Shown here piece by piece: positions 1-5,521 of a DNA stretch of 5,521 nucleotides; positions within the stretch are counted from its first letter, which is position 1; the number at the start of each line of letters is the position of its first letter. The notes below the pieces were generated by a model. That model searched no databases and was not told the DNA's origin. It saw only the letters and a list, made by a program, of their open reading frames with translations. The DNA is from a virus. Location of the stretch: the UHGV virus genome UHGV-0231424; one strand, given 5' to 3'. The translations under genes and the position numbers were made by a program.

Positions 1-149
1 ACATAAGAACAGATCGATTCGAAGTAGCGATAGACGCGATGGACAAAATCAACCAAAGCACAGCGGACCAGATCGCGAAGAACAAGGGCGAAACCGAAAG
101 TGTGAAAACCTTCGGGACAGAAGGAAAAACCGATCCCGAAAAGAGCTAA
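1..149 (+). CDS. C-terminal part of a 107-aa hypothetical protein that begins at 5347 and wraps around the window junction (circular genome); possible internal scaffolding (VP3-like) protein by position
   Basis: Frame 3 is open from the first base to the TAA at 147..149 (…IRTDRFEVAIDAMDKINQSTADQIAKNKGETESVKTFGTEGKTDPEKS*). The last base of the window (g5521) plus the first two bases (ac) make a GAC codon that joins the ORF starting at 5347 in the same frame. Third-position T usage is low, as in the confident genes. Not in the ORF track because it has no in-window start. Confidence 0.55.
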   Translation, partial: IRTDRFEVAIDAMDKINQSTADQIAKNKGETESVKTFGTEGKTDPEKS

Positions 150-178
150 AGCAGTCGTATAAAGATCTACCAAAACTC

Positions 179-210
179 AAAGAGGGGGGATATTTCCGCC
201 CCCCTCTTTT
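179..210 (+). terminator. Rho-independent-type terminator: perfect 11-bp GC-rich stem (AAAGAGGGGGG / CCCCCCTCTTT), 9-nt loop, followed by a T run
   Basis: Read directly: 179-189 aaagagggggg, loop 190-198 atatttccg, 199-209 cccccctcttt (exact reverse complement), then t210. It lies 30 nt downstream of the stop of the wrapping ORF and upstream of VP2. Confidence 0.6.
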
Positions 211-304
211 AACCCTCGTAAATATATGTGGCACAGAGCGGTAGACATTTATACATATATAACAAGAACTATAGGTATAAATTCTTTTTTAAAAAAGAAC
301 GAAA
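211..304 (+). promoter_or_regulatory. AT-rich non-coding leader upstream of VP2, the only sizeable intergenic region; putative promoter and possibly replication-origin region
   Basis: No ORF with sensible codon usage. Contains TAGACA (242-247, -35-like), TATAAAT (276-282, -10-like, though the spacing to TAGACA is too long for a pair), and an 8-bp inverted repeat atatatgt(222-229)/acatatat(253-260). Assignment of specific promoter elements is not secure. Confidence 0.25.
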
Positions 305-1513
305 ATGAACTTCAAAGAACTACTGAAATTACTCGAAAAAGGAGAGGATCTCATGAGCCCTCTCTCGGGAATTGTAGGCGATGTTTCAGGAATCCTCAAT
401 ACGCTGGGCGTAGGCAGAAGGAGGCAGATAAGACAGCAGAAAGAAATGGCAGAAAACGCAGCCAAAATAAATTACAAATACGGAGAAATGGCGGCGGAGA
501 ATGCATTCGAAAGACAGCAAGTGTTATACAACAGGACCTATCAAGACCAAAGTTACGCCAACCAAGTCGCGCAAATGGATGCAGCGGGATTGTCTCCCGG
601 TCTGATGTATGGCAAAGGAGGTGCCGGAGGCGGAGGAGCCGGTTCGACAACCGGTGCTCCAATGGGTGCAACAGGAGCTACAGGAGCAGGATCAGCAGCC
701 GATCCGAATATGCAACTACAGGCATTGATGTCATTGCGACAAGTACGGATGAGCGAACGAAAGAACGAAGCAGAAATCAACCTGCTCAATACGCAAGCAG
801 AAGCACTCAAAGCAGAAGCGGGCAAAAGCAAAGAAGAAACCACGTCAATAATCGAAAAGAGAATATGGCAGGTAAAACAGGAAATGTTCGAAGGCTGGAA
901 AGGCTTTATCGGCACAGCAAATCAACTATGGGACCAGATGGTAAAATGGCAACCCACGGAAAAAACGACGATCGACGGCAAAGAAATCGAGATACCTAAA
1001 TACTTCGAAATAGAGGACGATAAATTCGGGAAGATCGTATTCGGAGAAAAATCATTCCAGGGCGATATGATGAAAGCCGAAAAACAAATCCTCGAAGGAA
1101 CAGCGGCAATCAAAACTCTGGAGAGCATATATGCAGACGAGAAACTATCGGCAGAAATCAACAAAATAAACGCGGACGCATGCAGCGCAATGGCTCAAGC
1201 AGCTTACTTCTACGCAGCGGGCAAAAATCAAGAAGCAGAAGCAAAAGTGGCCGAAGCAAAAAGAAGGACCGAAGAAGCAACCGCAGATCTGCGAGAACTC
1301 CAATACTGGACCGAAATAGCGAATACAATCCTCAAACTCGCGCAAGTAGTAGGAAATATGGTAATCGGAGGAAAAACAGGAAAAGCGATCAGAGAATACA
1401 CGGAAAGAAGGATGAACGAAACACCCCCCAAGAATTCATCGACAGTAACACAACACTACGATCCGGAGATGAATTTTAAGGGAGTAGATAAGACCGTAAC
1501 GACAAAATGGTAG
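305..1513 (+). CDS. VP2: Microviridae VP2-like minor capsid / DNA pilot protein (402 aa)
   Basis: The N-terminal region carries the pattern I recognise from Microviridae VP2/H-type pilot proteins (…NYKYGEMAAENAFERQQVLYNRTYQDQSYANQVAQMDAAGLSPGLMY…). It is followed by a Gly/Ala/Thr-rich low-complexity linker (611-706) and a long coiled-coil-like, charged C-terminal half. Codon usage is typical for this genome. Alternative start at ATG 353 (MSPLSGIVG…), preceded by a strong Shine-Dalgarno aaaaaGGAGAGG (341-347, 5-nt spacing). Confidence 0.85.
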   Translation: MNFKELLKLLEKGEDLMSPLSGIVGDVSGILNTLGVGRRRQIRQQKEMAENAAKINYKYGEMAAENAFERQQVLYNRTYQDQSYANQVAQMDAAGLSPGLMYGKGGAGGGGAGSTTGAPMGATGATGAGSAADPNMQLQALMSLRQVRMSERKNEAEINLLNTQAEALKAEAGKSKEETTSIIEKRIWQVKQEMFEGWKGFIGTANQLWDQMVKWQPTEKTTIDGKEIEIPKYFEIEDDKFGKIVFGEKSFQGDMMKAEKQILEGTAAIKTLESIYADEKLSAEINKINADACSAMAQAAYFYAAGKNQEAEAKVAEAKRRTEEATADLRELQYWTEIANTILKLAQVVGNMVIGGKTGKAIREYTERRMNETPPKNSSTVTQHYDPEMNFKGVDKTVTTKW

Positions 1514-2584: not shown

Positions 2585-2826
2585 TCGGTGCAGAAGCAGT
2601 ATCCAGACGAAACTTCAAATACGAAGGAACATTCTACGTGACAGAAGACGGAGAAACATTCGACAAGGAATACGTAGAAACTCATAAACCGCAAAGAACA
2701 GGCATCAGCTTCTACGAGGTAAGCAACTGGATATACAACGAAAGAAAACAACTGTACGAACCTATTATCAGAAGGATAGTAATGATCAAAAACACCAACA
2801 TTCAATTATCACTGAACTATGAATGA
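2467..2826 (+). CDS. Hypothetical protein (119 aa) immediately downstream of rep
   Basis: ATG 4 nt after the rep stop, in the same frame. The C-terminal ~80 codons (from about 2585) have genome-typical codon usage and protein-like composition (…FKYEGTFYVTEDGETFDKEYVETHKPQRTGISFYEVSNWIYNERKQLYEPIIRRIVMIKNT…). The N-terminal 39 codons look compositionally off-frame. The stop TGA (2824-2826) overlaps the start of the next gene (ATGAATGA). Confidence 0.5.
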   Translation: MGNGICNQKSREYIDQKQDNKFAKGRGDIGDRSTNLTKLIGAEAVSRRNFKYEGTFYVTEDGETFDKEYVETHKPQRTGISFYEVSNWIYNERKQLYEPIIRRIVMIKNTNIQLSLNYE

Positions 2827-2989
2827 AAAAGTAAAGAAAATCGTAAAATGGATCGCGGTAATAGCAGCCGCAATCGGCGCCGCAGCTGCCGTAATCATGG
2901 AGCAAGGATGCTCTCACAAGCACTACCTCAAAGCAAACGGAATCAAAATCGACACAGTCGAAGTATCAACAACAACAAAAATCAAGTAA
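2819..2989 (+). CDS. Small single-pass membrane protein (56 aa): MNEKVKKIVKWIAVIAAAIGAAAAVIMEQGCSHKHYLKANGIKIDTVEVSTTTKIK; candidate lysis/membrane-targeting protein
   Basis: Not in the supplied ORF track (below its apparent ~60-aa cutoff); found by reading frame +2. ATG 2819 overlaps the upstream stop (ATGAATGA); TAA 2987-2989 is followed 1 nt later by the next ATG. Lys-rich N-terminus, then a 17-20 residue hydrophobic Ala/Ile/Val helix. Only 3/56 NNT codons, which is genome-typical. It fills the gap between flanking genes exactly. Confidence 0.55.
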   Translation: MNEKVKKIVKWIAVIAAAIGAAAAVIMEQGCSHKHYLKANGIKIDTVEVSTTTKIK

Positions 2990-2990
2990 C

Positions 2991-3296
2991 ATGGACAAGA
3001 AATTCAGAAATCAGCTACTTGCTGAAAGCGGAAAAAAAGAGAGCGAAATCGAAAGCGTAAACCTCGAAATCGAAGAAAGAGAGCAATCGAAAAACGGCAT
3101 ATTCGTGCTGATCCGCAACAAGAAAAACAAATGGCTGATCACAATGTGCGGCTCGCTCTTGAACGGAAAGGAATTCGACACTAAAGAGGAAGCCGAAGAA
3201 CACATAGCTAAAAAAGAATGGGAAGACATCCTGACCGCAACATCCGTATTCTTCCTGCACGTATACCATGAAATGAAAAACACTCAAACAAAATAA
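2991..3296 (+). CDS. Hypothetical acidic/charged protein (101 aa) immediately upstream of the major capsid gene
   Basis: ATG 1 nt after the preceding stop; its own stop lies 3 nt before the VP1 ATG. Genome-typical codon usage (~7% NNT). Glu/Lys-rich, with a hydrophobic core segment (GIFVLI…WLITMCGSLL). No motif I can assign. Confidence 0.6.
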   Translation: MDKKFRNQLLAESGKKESEIESVNLEIEEREQSKNGIFVLIRNKKNKWLITMCGSLLNGKEFDTKEEAEEHIAKKEWEDILTATSVFFLHVYHEMKNTQTK

Positions 3297-3299
3297 GCC

Positions 3300-5342
3300 A
3301 TGAAAAAAACATTAGGAGGAGACAGAATCCGGAGCGAAAGCAAAATGGAAGTATATCTGCCCAATTTCGGCAGATCGTCACATAACATAGGAAAAATAGT
3401 TCGAACATCACAAGCATGCGGCACAATCGTTCCCTATTGGTGCCAAATAGGTATGGATGGAACGACGTTCTACATCGACATCACGACAAAAGTAAAAACA
3501 ATGCCGACGACCGGACCCGTATTCGGCAGCTTCAAACATCAAATCGACGTATTCGTAATTCCGATCAGACTCTATATAGCAGCGCTGCACAACAACGCTC
3601 TGGGAGTAGGGCTGAACATGAGCAAGGTGCTGCTGCCGCAATTCAACGTATATTCAGGTACTACATCAATTTACGAAAACGACACCAATAGAGGGCAAGT
3701 CAATCCGAGCTCGCTGCTCTCATATCTGGGAATCAAGGGGTTCGGATATTCTAAAGTCAATCCGCACCTTCGCAGCTTTCCTGCGATATTCAATCTGGCG
3801 TACTGGGACATATTCAAAAACTACTACGCCAACAAACAAGAAGAAAACGCATATGTAATCACCGGAATAGACCATATCTGGAAGAGCATCAGCGTAGAAG
3901 ATGGAGTCAAGCAGCTTAGGACATGGACGAGCAACAAGAGTACGACATACAGGATCGCTCCGACAGCTGATAAACCGTTGTACATCAAACTGGAATTCGA
4001 GGAAAACGTCTCACCAGAAGTGGTCAACGAAATCCAGTTCATGACGAATATTCCCGACACAACGCAGAAATTAAACGAGTTGACGAAACTCGGTGACACC
4101 TTCGTATTCGAACGAACAGACCCGGATGCATTGGGAATTAGGGAACCAAGCAACCTGAGAAAAGCAACTAAGGTCTTCGCATACAAAGTCAAAAAGACTA
4201 TCGAGATCGCATACAACATGAATACGGTCGGAGAGCATCCGATAACAATGCCGGACAACCAGAAGATCAAACTAACACAATTTCCATTAAAAAACATCGA
4301 CGATGAACGGAGTGCAATCTTAGCAGCACCCAGCACCTCGGCATATACGGTAAGTAATGATAAAATGCCATACGCAGCTGCACTCAAAACTCTGGAGCTA
4401 CCGAATTACGACCGCACAAAAACATACCGTAGCTCAAATTCATGGTACTCACAAGCGGGGTTAGCAGTAAAAACATACCTTAGCGACAGGTTCAACAACT
4501 GGCTGAACACCGAGTGGATCGACGGGACGACCGGAGGGATCAACGCGATCACGGCGGTAGATGTGAGCGATGGAAAACTTACGATGGATGCTCTGATCCT
4601 TCAAAAGAAGATTTTCAACATGCTGAACCGCGTAGCCATTACAGACGGCACCTATCAGGCATGGAGAGAAGCGACATACGGGATCAGAAGCACGACGCTG
4701 CCTGAATCTCCTATCTTCTGCGGCGGAATGCAGAGCGAAATCGCATTCGACGAAATCGTATCGAACTCAGCGACAGATGAAGAGCCATTAGGAACACTTG
4801 CCGGCCGAGGAGTCGCAACCATGTACAAATCCGGAAGGGGCTTGAAAATCAAATGCACGGAACCAAGCATGATCATGGCCTTAGGATCGATCACACCTCG
4901 AATCGATTACAGCCAAGGCAACAAATGGTGGACAAGACTGCAAAATATGGATGACTTCCATAAGCCGACATTGGACGCAATCGGATTTCAAGAACTGATA
5001 GCGGAAGAAGCAGCTGCATGGAGTACAGAAACCACCGATGACCACCGACAAACGTACCAATCATTGGGAAAACAACCGTCATGGATCGAATATACGACAG
5101 ACGTAAACGAAACGTACGGCGAATTTGCAGCCGGAATGCCTTTGGCGTTCATGTGTCTGAACAGGGTGTACGAGGAAAACAAAGACGGCTCGATCAAAAA
5201 CGCATCGACATACATCGATCCTACGATATACAACAACATATTCGCAGAGTCGAGATTAAGTTCACAGAACTTCTGGGTACAAGTAGCGTTCGACGTAACA
5301 GCACGTCGAGTAATGTCAGCAAAACAAATTCCAAATCTGTAA
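3300..5342 (+). CDS. VP1: Microviridae major capsid protein VP1 / F-like (680 aa)
   Basis: N-terminal signature SSHNIGKIVRTSQACGTIVPYWCQIGMDGTTFYID…VFVIPIRLY corresponds to the conserved LSHxxxxT…G.LVP…PGDTF…FF.P.RL block of Microviridae F/VP1 proteins. Long, clean ORF with consistent codon usage. Alternative start at ATG 3345 (MEVYLPNF…; GGAG at 3331-3334, 10-nt spacing) would give an N-terminal length more like homologues. Confidence 0.9.
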   Translation: MKKTLGGDRIRSESKMEVYLPNFGRSSHNIGKIVRTSQACGTIVPYWCQIGMDGTTFYIDITTKVKTMPTTGPVFGSFKHQIDVFVIPIRLYIAALHNNALGVGLNMSKVLLPQFNVYSGTTSIYENDTNRGQVNPSSLLSYLGIKGFGYSKVNPHLRSFPAIFNLAYWDIFKNYYANKQEENAYVITGIDHIWKSISVEDGVKQLRTWTSNKSTTYRIAPTADKPLYIKLEFEENVSPEVVNEIQFMTNIPDTTQKLNELTKLGDTFVFERTDPDALGIREPSNLRKATKVFAYKVKKTIEIAYNMNTVGEHPITMPDNQKIKLTQFPLKNIDDERSAILAAPSTSAYTVSNDKMPYAAALKTLELPNYDRTKTYRSSNSWYSQAGLAVKTYLSDRFNNWLNTEWIDGTTGGINAITAVDVSDGKLTMDALILQKKIFNMLNRVAITDGTYQAWREATYGIRSTTLPESPIFCGGMQSEIAFDEIVSNSATDEEPLGTLAGRGVATMYKSGRGLKIKCTEPSMIMALGSITPRIDYSQGNKWWTRLQNMDDFHKPTLDAIGFQELIAEEAAAWSTETTDDHRQTYQSLGKQPSWIEYTTDVNETYGEFAAGMPLAFMCLNRVYEENKDGSIKNASTYIDPTIYNNIFAESRLSSQNFWVQVAFDVTARRVMSAKQIPNL

Positions 5343-5346
5343 TACT

Positions 5347-5521
5347 ATGAAAACAGCAAAAAATAGAAAAGGATGCATCGATAATCCAGACCTTACCTAC
5401 GAGGCAGAACCGAGGGAAGTGAAACTAAGAAAGATAATCAGCGGAGAAGCCAGTAACATGGAGGATGGAGTATTCCCGACAATCTACACGGAAAAAAAAG
5501 ATGGAGTGCGACCCGAATACG
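5347..5521 (+). CDS. N-terminal part (58 aa + split codon) of the 107-aa hypothetical protein that continues at position 1
   Basis: ATG 5347 lies 4 nt after the VP1 stop. MKTAKNRKGCIDNPDLTYEAEPREVKLRKIISGEASNMEDGVFPTIYTEKKDGVRPEY, with no stop before the window end. It joins frame-exactly to the ORF at 1..149. Codon usage is genome-typical. Confidence 0.55.
   Translation, partial: MKTAKNRKGCIDNPDLTYEAEPREVKLRKIISGEASNMEDGVFPTIYTEKKDGVRPEY

Follow-up and report, generated by a model that had tools for sequence, protein, structure and literature searches.

Few viruses are as common in the human gut as microviruses, and we know of no account of how those outside the phiX174 group leave the cell. 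In phiX174, the E protein, an inhibitor of MraY, causes septal lysis, and its transmembrane helix is the active part. The colicin lysis proteins or BRP (PF02402) are precursors of 45-52 amino acids (aa), which carry a signal peptidase II signal and give a mature lipopeptide of about 28 residues. Both this lipopeptide and the stable signal peptide released from the precursor are active and contribute to permeabilising the envelope. Small lipoproteins are also known from phages. The Rz1-type o-spanins, which are small outer-membrane lipoproteins, are standard in phage lysis cassettes, and those found outside such cassettes are mostly of the superinfection-exclusion kind. Here, an open reading frame (ORF) at 2819-2989 on the + strand of UHGV virus genome UHGV-0231424 is compared with these systems. 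The whole stretch of 5,521 nucleotides (nt) is referred to as the window and the ORF as tm56. The initial annotation, made from the sequence alone, had proposed that this ORF encodes a single-pass membrane protein and a candidate single-gene lysis protein. Its remark that most genomes of this kind have no assigned lysis gene agrees with the literature, in which phiX174 is the sole microvirus with a lysis mechanism worked out (PMC3394797).

tm56 is a real gene that is translationally coupled to both of its neighbours. The ORF exists as first described, with an ATG at 2819, a TAA at 2987-2989 and 56 codons for the product MNEKVKKIVKWIAVIAAAIGAAAAVIMEQGCSHKHYLKANGIKIDTVEVSTTTKIK. Its start overlaps the stop of the upstream ORF within ATGAATGA (2819-2826), the upstream TGA being at 2824-2826; in relatives, the same junction is an ATGA overlap, the commoner classic form. 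At the other end, the stop codon lies one base ahead of the start (2991) of a 101-aa gene, forming TAAcATG (2987-2993), and this TAA/TGA-N-ATG junction is kept in 35 of 35 copies. The coupling on both sides, as noticed initially, is thus retained in the relatives. The gene otherwise stands alone, as its overlaps with the neighbours come to just 8 nt and 0 nt. When scored against the three large genes of the genome, tm56 has a codon score of 0.405 bits per codon, the top value among the + strand ORFs of at least 30 aa, and the other two frames of the locus score -0.64 and -0.38. The codon bias is, therefore, like that of the real genes, as had been stated.

Of the close relatives, 37 have sequence at the locus, and in every one the gene was found at the same place and with the same 56 codons; neither frameshifts nor stops were seen in its frame among them. 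Selection was analysed by the Nei-Gojobori method on 35 full-length, nucleotide-distinct copies with 84-93% DNA identity to the window. In frame, the proportion of synonymous differences (pS) is 0.334, that of non-synonymous differences (pN) is 0.037, and the ratio of non-synonymous to synonymous divergence (dN/dS) is 0.086, whereas the other frames at the locus give dN/dS values of 1.9 and 2.3. Variable sites at the three codon positions number 16/7/39, so that the third position dominates. Conservation at the same locus and a dN/dS below 1, which the initial annotation had suggested looking for, were thus both observed. The value for tm56 is also the lowest in the genome, ahead of the pilot protein (0.10), Rep (0.12) and the capsid protein (0.135). 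An Arg-rich ORF at 2848-3060, which overlaps the gene and which had been suspected of not being real, is rejected: it has a codon score of -0.08, is interrupted by stops in 26 of 36 relatives and shows a dN/dS above 1 in its frame. The description of tm56 as unannotated is correct only in so far as its 56 aa fall under a 60-aa cut-off that is in common use. It is called by public gene callers, and one copy is present in GenBank as DAG62868.1, 'MAG TPA: hypothetical protein [Microviridae sp.]'.

The protein begins with an n-region of net positive charge, residues 1-10 (MNEKVKKIVK; 2819-2848), with a dN/dS of 0.014 at a pS of 0.26. It is followed by the h-region or helix core, residues 11-27 WIAVIAAAIGAAAAVIM (2849-2899), which is Ala/Gly-rich, uncharged and has a dN/dS of 0.040. 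This stretch from W11 to M27 is a hydrophobic run of 17 residues and the sole 17-mer with a Kyte-Doolittle mean of at least 2.0 in any + strand frame of the window. Next comes the lipobox-like E28-Q29-G30-C31 (2900-2911), in which Cys31 is the predicted site of lipidation and cleavage; amino-acid changes number 0 in 35 genomes here, at a pS of 0.67. The remaining 25 residues, SHKHYLKANGIKIDTVEVSTTTKIK (2912-2986), form a basic tail in which polar and hydrophobic residues alternate and the (I/V)-D-(S/T) motif is conserved. AlphaFold2 predicts a helix over residues 3-28 with a pLDDT of about 85, and residues 30-56 have a pLDDT below 50 and no confident fold (mean pLDDT 63). The Lys-rich N-terminus and single hydrophobic helix of the first description are, therefore, supported by the four Lys in the first ten residues, a Kyte-Doolittle mean of 2.44 over the 17-residue run and the predicted helix, and the tail is polar, as it had stated.

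Within the genome, constraint on protein sequence is strongest in residues 1-31 of tm56, with a dN/dS of 0.023 as against 0.186 for the tail. Since the synonymous divergence of this stretch is normal (pS 0.36), it is the protein that is under constraint rather than a DNA element overlapping it. Furthermore, as residues 1-31 are far more constrained than the tail, the helix appears to matter in itself. Signal peptides ordinarily evolve fast. The constraint is unusual in this respect, and it is for this reason that the Ala/Gly-rich helix is proposed as likely to make a sequence-specific contact. By analogy, it may meet a membrane target in the manner of phiX174 E with MraY and LysM of phage M with MurJ.

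On the evidence of profile searches, tm56 belongs to a large unnamed family that is found only on microvirus-sized contigs. The family layout consists of a basic N-terminus, 13-17 uncharged hydrophobic residues, a small residue with an invariant Cys, and a polar tail of 25-45 residues with (I/V)-D-(S/T). As defined here, members have 49-75 aa, lie in the slot between Rep and the pre-capsid gene, and carry the h-region followed by small residue-Cys and the (I/V)-D-(S/T) motif, all of which are seen in tm56. A profile of ten diverse members (A1) matched 2288 clusters at 90% identity with E <=1. Among the 120 matches listed, the proteins have 65-104 aa, most of those with long contigs are on contigs of ~5.3-7.5 kb (one on 11.9 kb), and the few with a source name are called 'hypothetical'. 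A second profile (A2), made from two large clades, the window clade and the VQSC clade, was searched without a word index against 1.84 billion protein representatives. It returned 75 representatives at E <0.001, nearly all of them small and Cys-bearing, the exceptions being a few assemblies that are truncated or chimeric and two evident false matches, P0294 and P0296. No cellular homologue was found among the 1.84 billion proteins in this search. The two clades align without gaps over the first 40 columns, with M1, C31 and D45 invariant and Q29 nearly so, and the VQSC clade has a 12-residue Asn/Gln/Thr-rich linker that is missing from the window clade. Among all ORFs of the loci examined, the same profile recovers those of L060/L063 (E ~4e-5) and L068 (1e-3). 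The branches with the boxes LLTSC, IGGC and LLAC are tied to the window clade by architecture, position and a short motif, their profile scores being not significant.

Database searches have given no name to the family. A tblastn search with the window protein found no homologue in 50,697 GenBank phage records; two sister subfamilies are present in GenBank with 49 and 21 records, always 'hypothetical' or unannotated. For tm56, Pfam-A at E <=1 gave no match and no lysis PHROG was matched; a search with ten family members, the window protein included, was likewise negative. A match to PHROG 7696 at E 0.015 concerns a PHROG of unknown function and was too weak to be used, and a search of solved structures returned only a spurious match to Alba (E 0.013). 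The literature searched, including the founding Alpavirinae papers, holds no description of the family or of any lipoprotein in Alpavirinae-like microviruses, which is not proof of absence. The family itself is uncharacterised and is akin to the small envelope lipoproteins of phages and to candidates for single-gene lysis. No match to the NCBIfam 'smalltalk protein' NF033879 was given by the window protein. The best family member, over residues 8-32 in the VQSC subfamily, scores 18.1 bits against this 29-residue Bacteroidetes family, whose profile ends at the Cys; this score is under the curated cut-off of 24.7. It was also observed that the lipoprotein ORF of some relatives continues in the same frame into upstream or downstream sequence, giving ORFs of 87-140 aa (L064 4173-4601, L054 1740-2003, L049 5346-5660, L039 5808-6191). 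In these, an internal Met is the probable start of the lipoprotein (MNEK... in L064), and the lengths of automatic gene calls are misleading for such fused ORFs.

The part of the first description that needs revision is the permanent membrane anchor. The charged N-terminus and the hydrophobic helix stand, but an invariant Gly/Ser-Cys directly after the helix had been overlooked. Cys31 is invariant across both alignments and the representatives, and it is preceded in tm56 by Gly30. In 40 of 48 distinct box variants, the residue at -1 is S, G or A; the other 8 are truncated or chimeric sequences or cases where the parser mis-picked the Cys. A basic n-region followed by an uncharged h-region is present in tm56 and in all the subfamilies. 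The combination of an invariant Cys right after an uncharged h-region, a small -1 residue and a basic n-region is the signature of a signal peptidase II substrate, no other common explanation covers all three, and tm56 is probably a pro-lipoprotein.

Distant relatives, with 36-56% capsid identity, were compared at the slot between Rep and the pre-capsid gene. In many of them, it is occupied by a small ORF of the same build, and the hydrophobic stretch of this ORF ends in a typical lipobox: LLTSC (L038, L039, L062, L064), VQSC (L049, L054, L057), GVSC (L060, L063), LLAC (L065) and TTSC (L068). In L044, L047, L048 and L066, the box IGGC comes after just 13 hydrophobic residues, which is too short for a membrane span. 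The PROSITE PS51257-type lipobox rule asks for uncharged residues at positions -4 to -2. The strict form of this pattern is passed by the boxes LLTSC (L038, L062), IGGC (L044, L047, L048, L066), GVSC (L060, L063) and TTSC (L068), by 26 of 66 representatives and by 20 of 120 VQSC members. The LLAC of L065 looks canonical and was missed owing to a charged residue farther upstream. The family is, thus, probably one of lipoproteins, and the window protein is a homologue with an atypical, invariant box. Because of this signal peptidase II signal at the family level, the hydrophobic segment of tm56 is more probably a cleaved signal peptide than a permanent anchor.

If so, the precursor would be inserted via Sec, Lgt would add a diacylglyceryl group to Cys31, and signal peptidase II would cut ahead of it. 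Two products are expected from such processing: a basic lipopeptide of 26 residues on the periplasmic side and a free, Ala-rich helix of 30 residues in the inner membrane. If it is processed in this way, the sizes, 56 aa for the precursor and 26 aa from Cys31 onwards, would fit a colicin-type lysis protein, with a precursor of about 45-55 aa and a mature lipopeptide of about 25-30 residues. The residues after Cys31 are SHKHY, and an acidic cluster is absent. In Bacteroidota, the signal for surface export of lipoproteins is C-X-K-(D/E)2 or SDDDD (PMC5080379), and since tm56 lacks such an acidic signal, the lipopeptide would not be expected to be flipped to the cell surface.

A different cut was also considered, as hardly any change is seen at Q29 in the two largest subfamilies, those with EQGC and with VQSC/AQSC. 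According to the Q-rule of Bacteroidetes, signal peptidase I would cut before Gln29 and release a soluble periplasmic peptide, pyroGlu-G-C-S-H-K..., with no lipid anchor. The residues at -1 would then be Glu or Val, which make poor signal peptidase I sites. In addition, Gln is missing in the LLTSC, IGGC, GVSC and LLAC branches, whereas the Cys is invariant. Thus, although an N-terminal Gln is exposed by most signal peptidase I substrates of Bacteroidetes (PMC5837995), this cleavage is highly improbable for a family in which Cys, and not Gln, is conserved throughout and the -1 residues are poor.

Several observations weigh against a lipoprotein-type lysis effector, and some of them concern the lipid anchor. 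The window clade passes the strict lipobox pattern in 0 of 120 members, because EQGC has Glu at -3, and the box also fails the Bacteroides criterion of being 'largely uncharged, nonpolar' (PMC12889592). As it fails both, lipidation is less certain for the window clade than for the family. The lipoprotein rules of Bacteroidota were, moreover, applied by inference from the Alpavirinae literature (PMC3091885, PMC3394797). The hydrophobic run of 17 residues could also serve as a permanent signal-anchor, and the near-invariance of the signal region is unusual for a mere export signal.

These points bear on an uncleaved signal-anchor of the E/LysM or 'protein antibiotic' type, whose helix would stay in the inner membrane in the N-in/C-out orientation. 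Its target would be a step in the supply of peptidoglycan precursors, such as MraY, MurJ or a Bacteroidota equivalent, and Cys31 could serve, for example, in a periplasmic disulfide-linked dimer. The uncharged 17-residue helix does lie between K10 and E28, in line with the AlphaFold2 helix at 3-28, and the failure of EQGC under the strict rule also favours this explanation. Constraint is highest in the helix region (dN/dS 0.023-0.04), which fits an effector helix, and the Ala/Gly-rich face of this region suits tight packing. Small phages also use small single-helix lysis proteins as a rule, according to PMC7693330 and PMC12506998. The family, however, speaks against it. Its invariant Cys with a small -1 residue is the signature of signal peptidase II, canonical lipoboxes are found in other branches, and one branch has an h-region of 13 residues, which is below the span of a bilayer. 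There is also no similarity to E. An uncleaved anchor is, on the whole, considered unlikely.

As regards function, tm56 may act as a host-lysis or release effector of the virus, which is a weaker inference than its processing; it is the best candidate for the host-lysis gene. A lysis role of one form or another, all forms taken together, is slightly favoured. The specific proposal of a lysis or release effector that is processed as a lipoprotein is the one preferred here, and it is advanced tentatively, at somewhat less than an even chance. The lipid-anchored tail would then act at the periplasmic face. In favour of lysis, tm56 contains the only strongly hydrophobic segment in any coding-strand frame, and it is co-translated with the late genes. 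Furthermore, no peptidase or other lysis-like domain was detected in the seven window proteins scanned against Pfam and PHROG. In other relatives (L040, L041, L056, L061, L050, L059), the slot is taken by small hydrophobic ORFs that are unrelated and lack the Cys, and this turnover counts for lysis because it is typical of single-gene lysis proteins. Four of these ORFs form a Cys-less family of 50-60 aa with the motif VIPT(V/S)(N/K)NW(S/T) (L040 2888-3070, L056, L041 2213-2365, L061 3744-3905), and those of L050 (34 aa) and L059 (26 aa) are yet other tiny hydrophobic ORFs.

A bolder and rather doubtful extension is that a large group of gut microviruses, probably infecting Bacteroidales, would rely on tm56 for lysis, with the product acting as a lipoprotein-type single-gene lysis protein of a class outside the known Sgl/amurin mechanisms. 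Such a protein might work through the lipid-anchored 26-residue peptide at the periplasmic face or through the conserved, released signal helix. As a third option, it could be a decoy substrate whose invariant, atypical E-Q-G-C box jams the maturation of lipoproteins by Lgt and LspA. Each of the three would provide a new antibacterial target in Bacteroidota.

Among the small lipoproteins of phages, a spanin-type role was weighed too, along with that of some other helper of enzyme-based lysis or of a membrane-docking or assembly factor with no direct part in lysis. The place of the Rz1-type lipoproteins in phage lysis cassettes and the position of tm56 just ahead of the capsid-proximal genes would agree with it. 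Neither a partner with an N-terminal helix nor an endolysin was found in the window, where tm56 is the sole strongly hydrophobic segment of the coding strand and a peptidase domain is absent. tm56 has no C-terminal membrane helix, as a unimolecular spanin would have, and its tail is not proline-rich. Spanin-like roles are ruled out by the lack of a partner or endolysin, and this whole set of explanations is very unlikely.

The distribution of the gene also speaks against lysis. No hydrophobic segment was found in any coding-strand frame of L042, L043, L051, L053, L058 and L067, so that lysis in the wider group does not always need such a protein. L067 is the nearest outgroup, with 56% capsid identity, and its want of a hydrophobic ORF weakens the view that tm56 must be the lysis gene. 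tm56 behaves partly like an accessory gene that is dispensable across the wider group. Counted in favour of lysis, on the other hand, is the only cultured Bacteroides (B. fragilis) microvirus, phiHBP1, which is without a tm56-like gene. In phiHBP1 (L070, PV598014), an ORF of 134 aa at 84-488 (-), annotated as hypothetical, shows the M15-type peptidase-like motif SGYR...H...CAAD, as judged by eye, and is a putative endolysin. M15 peptidases have been proposed as endolysins in some Alpavirinae (PMC3394797). A comparison for mutual exclusion between M15 and tm56 covered only phiHBP1 and three relatives, which are too few genomes, and the hydrophobicity scan of those T-rich genomes is uninformative.

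It is here that superinfection exclusion, the main rival to lysis, has to be weighed. In this explanation, tm56 would be a receptor-masking lipoprotein like Llp of T5 or Cor of phi80/N15, and its tail would bind the outer-membrane receptor of the virus, so that infected cells and debris stop inactivating the progeny or admitting competitors. It accounts for the lipoprotein-type architecture and for the patchy spread of the gene, which is present in 37 of 37 in the window clade and absent or replaced in ~40% of the more distant relatives. The greater variability of the tail is also expected of a surface at the host interface. However, tm56 is the most constrained gene (0.086 versus 0.135 for the capsid protein), which is odd for an accessory exclusion gene, and it is the signal region that is constrained rather than the tail, the putative receptor-binding part. 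With 26 residues and no confident fold, the mature peptide is small for a specific receptor binder, and similarity to the Llp or Cor families was not detected. Exclusion, therefore, seems unlikely, and the lipoprotein-type lysis effector is retained as the preferred explanation.

The window as such is a whole circular gut microvirus genome of 5.5 kb, circularly permuted, since the VP3-like (scaffold) ORF wraps around its ends. The segments 5347-5521 and 1-149, when joined, encode 107 aa, and relatives have a called gene of 107 aa. The genome has about eight genes in a single coding-strand array, with every long ORF on the + strand. These include the pilot protein (305-1513, matching PHROG pilot families), a Rep of the rolling-circle type (1552-2463; PF23343, PHROG 942) and the major capsid protein of 680 aa (3300-5342; PF02305, PHROG 514). 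The length of the capsid protein suggests an Alpavirinae-like virus. Relatives with 80-90% capsid protein identity are circular contigs of 5.5-5.7 kb from IMG/VR and from ENA and Logan metagenome assemblies, and the nearest GenBank records are faecal microviruses with at most 56% capsid identity.

Downstream of tm56, the 101-aa gene (2991-3296, +) directly precedes the capsid gene and marks the syntenic slot, as it is 63-78% identical in close relatives and has weak homologues in distant ones. Its dN/dS is 0.26, and it is without a Pfam or PHROG assignment. The upstream neighbour (2467-2826, +), listed with 119 aa, similarly has no family match in Pfam or PHROG. Only its 3' two-thirds look coding in the listed frame, with a dN/dS of 0.75 in codons 1-39, ~0.36 further on and 0.48 overall. 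Another ORF, of 65 aa (2387-2584, +), overlaps both Rep, at its 3' end, and this listed ORF, at its 5' end. Among the 38 close relatives searched, nearly all have the 65-aa ORF intact, with 58-83% identity; L012 and L004 have an in-frame stop close to its 3' end. Purifying selection falls on the 65-aa frame (dN/dS 0.15-0.37, versus 0.99 for the tail of the Rep frame and 0.75 in codons 1-39 of the 119-aa ORF). Its motif (E/Q)(I/L)W.TEF(A/G) is also present in the distant relatives L062, L064 and L038. The 65-aa ORF is probably a real overlapping gene, and the true start of the 119-aa ORF probably lies near 2584. The sole long intergenic region (150-304) contains a perfect inverted repeat of 11 bp at 179-209, AAAGAGGGGGG / CCCCCCTCTTT, with a loop of 9 nt and a T-run after it, which could be a terminator or the hairpin of a replication origin. 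More AT-rich inverted repeats are present at 247-299.

With regard to the host, the sole match from a scan of bacterial genomes was a free contig of 5.7 kb within an Acinetobacter lwoffii assembly. This contig (L069, NZ_JACWEU010000076.1, 5673 bp) is a complete close relative with 84% capsid identity and an intact 56-aa gene; it most likely reached that assembly as a contaminant and does not point to the host. The contig of GCA_002120435.1 that carries a relative is a free viral contig as well. In an IMG/VR contig of 11.6 kb (L005, about 5133-6668), the Gly-rich run of the pilot gene contains a junction between the viral genome and non-viral DNA, which encodes a tyrosine-integrase-like protein and ATPases; the contig has no self-repeat and may be an assembly chimera or an integrated provirus.

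The interest of tm56 lies in its being the most constrained gene of its genome and a member of a family with thousands of unnamed variants confined to such viruses, with the hallmarks of an envelope peptide held by a lipid anchor. If it is the lysis gene, no lipoprotein-type factor for single-gene lysis would have preceded it, and it would give a direct handle on a vulnerable step of the Bacteroidota envelope. If it masks the receptor as a lipoprotein instead, Microviridae would have their first described exclusion system, through which the receptor and host might be identified. In either case, annotation pipelines with a floor of 60 aa will miss it.

When tm56 is set against the known systems, membership in the E, BRP, spanin or Llp/Cor families is rejected, as there are no matches in Pfam, PHROGs or NCBIfam. 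phiX174 E (PF04517) is likewise a small microvirus protein with a charged N-terminus and a single, constrained N-terminal helix, from a virus without a recognised endolysin, and tm56 is a candidate for the sole lysis factor in the same way. tm56 is, however, not related to E, to which it shows no sequence similarity. E has 91 aa as against 56, lacks the small residue-Cys motif and is embedded out of frame in the external scaffold gene, whereas tm56 is stand-alone. Moreover, E depends on the conserved proline P21 for its SlyD-dependent activity, and residues 1-31 of tm56 contain no proline. The single-gene lysis (Sgl) proteins of ssRNA phages, such as LysM with its 37 aa, an inhibitor of MurJ, are also tiny helix proteins that act as the sole lysis factor, with fast turnover and unrelated sequences in the same role. 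They belong to another virus realm, with no homology to tm56, and no mention of a lipoprotein signal in them was found in PMC7693330.

The lipoproteins among the known systems come near to tm56 in other respects. Llp and Cor are small phage-encoded envelope lipoproteins from single genes with no enzymatic domain, but their mature domains are folded and have about 60 residues or more, whereas the mature part of tm56 would have 26 residues and no confident fold, with the constraint on the signal region. Rz1-type o-spanins are very small outer-membrane lipoproteins with a short mature part; they are proline-rich and need an i-spanin and an endolysin, neither of which was found in the window, and the tail of tm56 is not proline-rich. 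The colicin lysis proteins share with tm56 the size, the layout and a hint of a functional signal region. They are enterobacterial plasmid genes without sequence similarity to it, the window protein and 9 other family members giving no match to PF02402 at E <=1, and the box EQGC of tm56 is non-canonical. It is also not obvious how virions of 25-30 nm would be released through intact peptidoglycan by colicin-type quasi-lysis, which proceeds via the outer-membrane phospholipase A. Thus, tm56 most resembles the colicin lysis proteins in size and layout, and phiX174 E in its genomic role.

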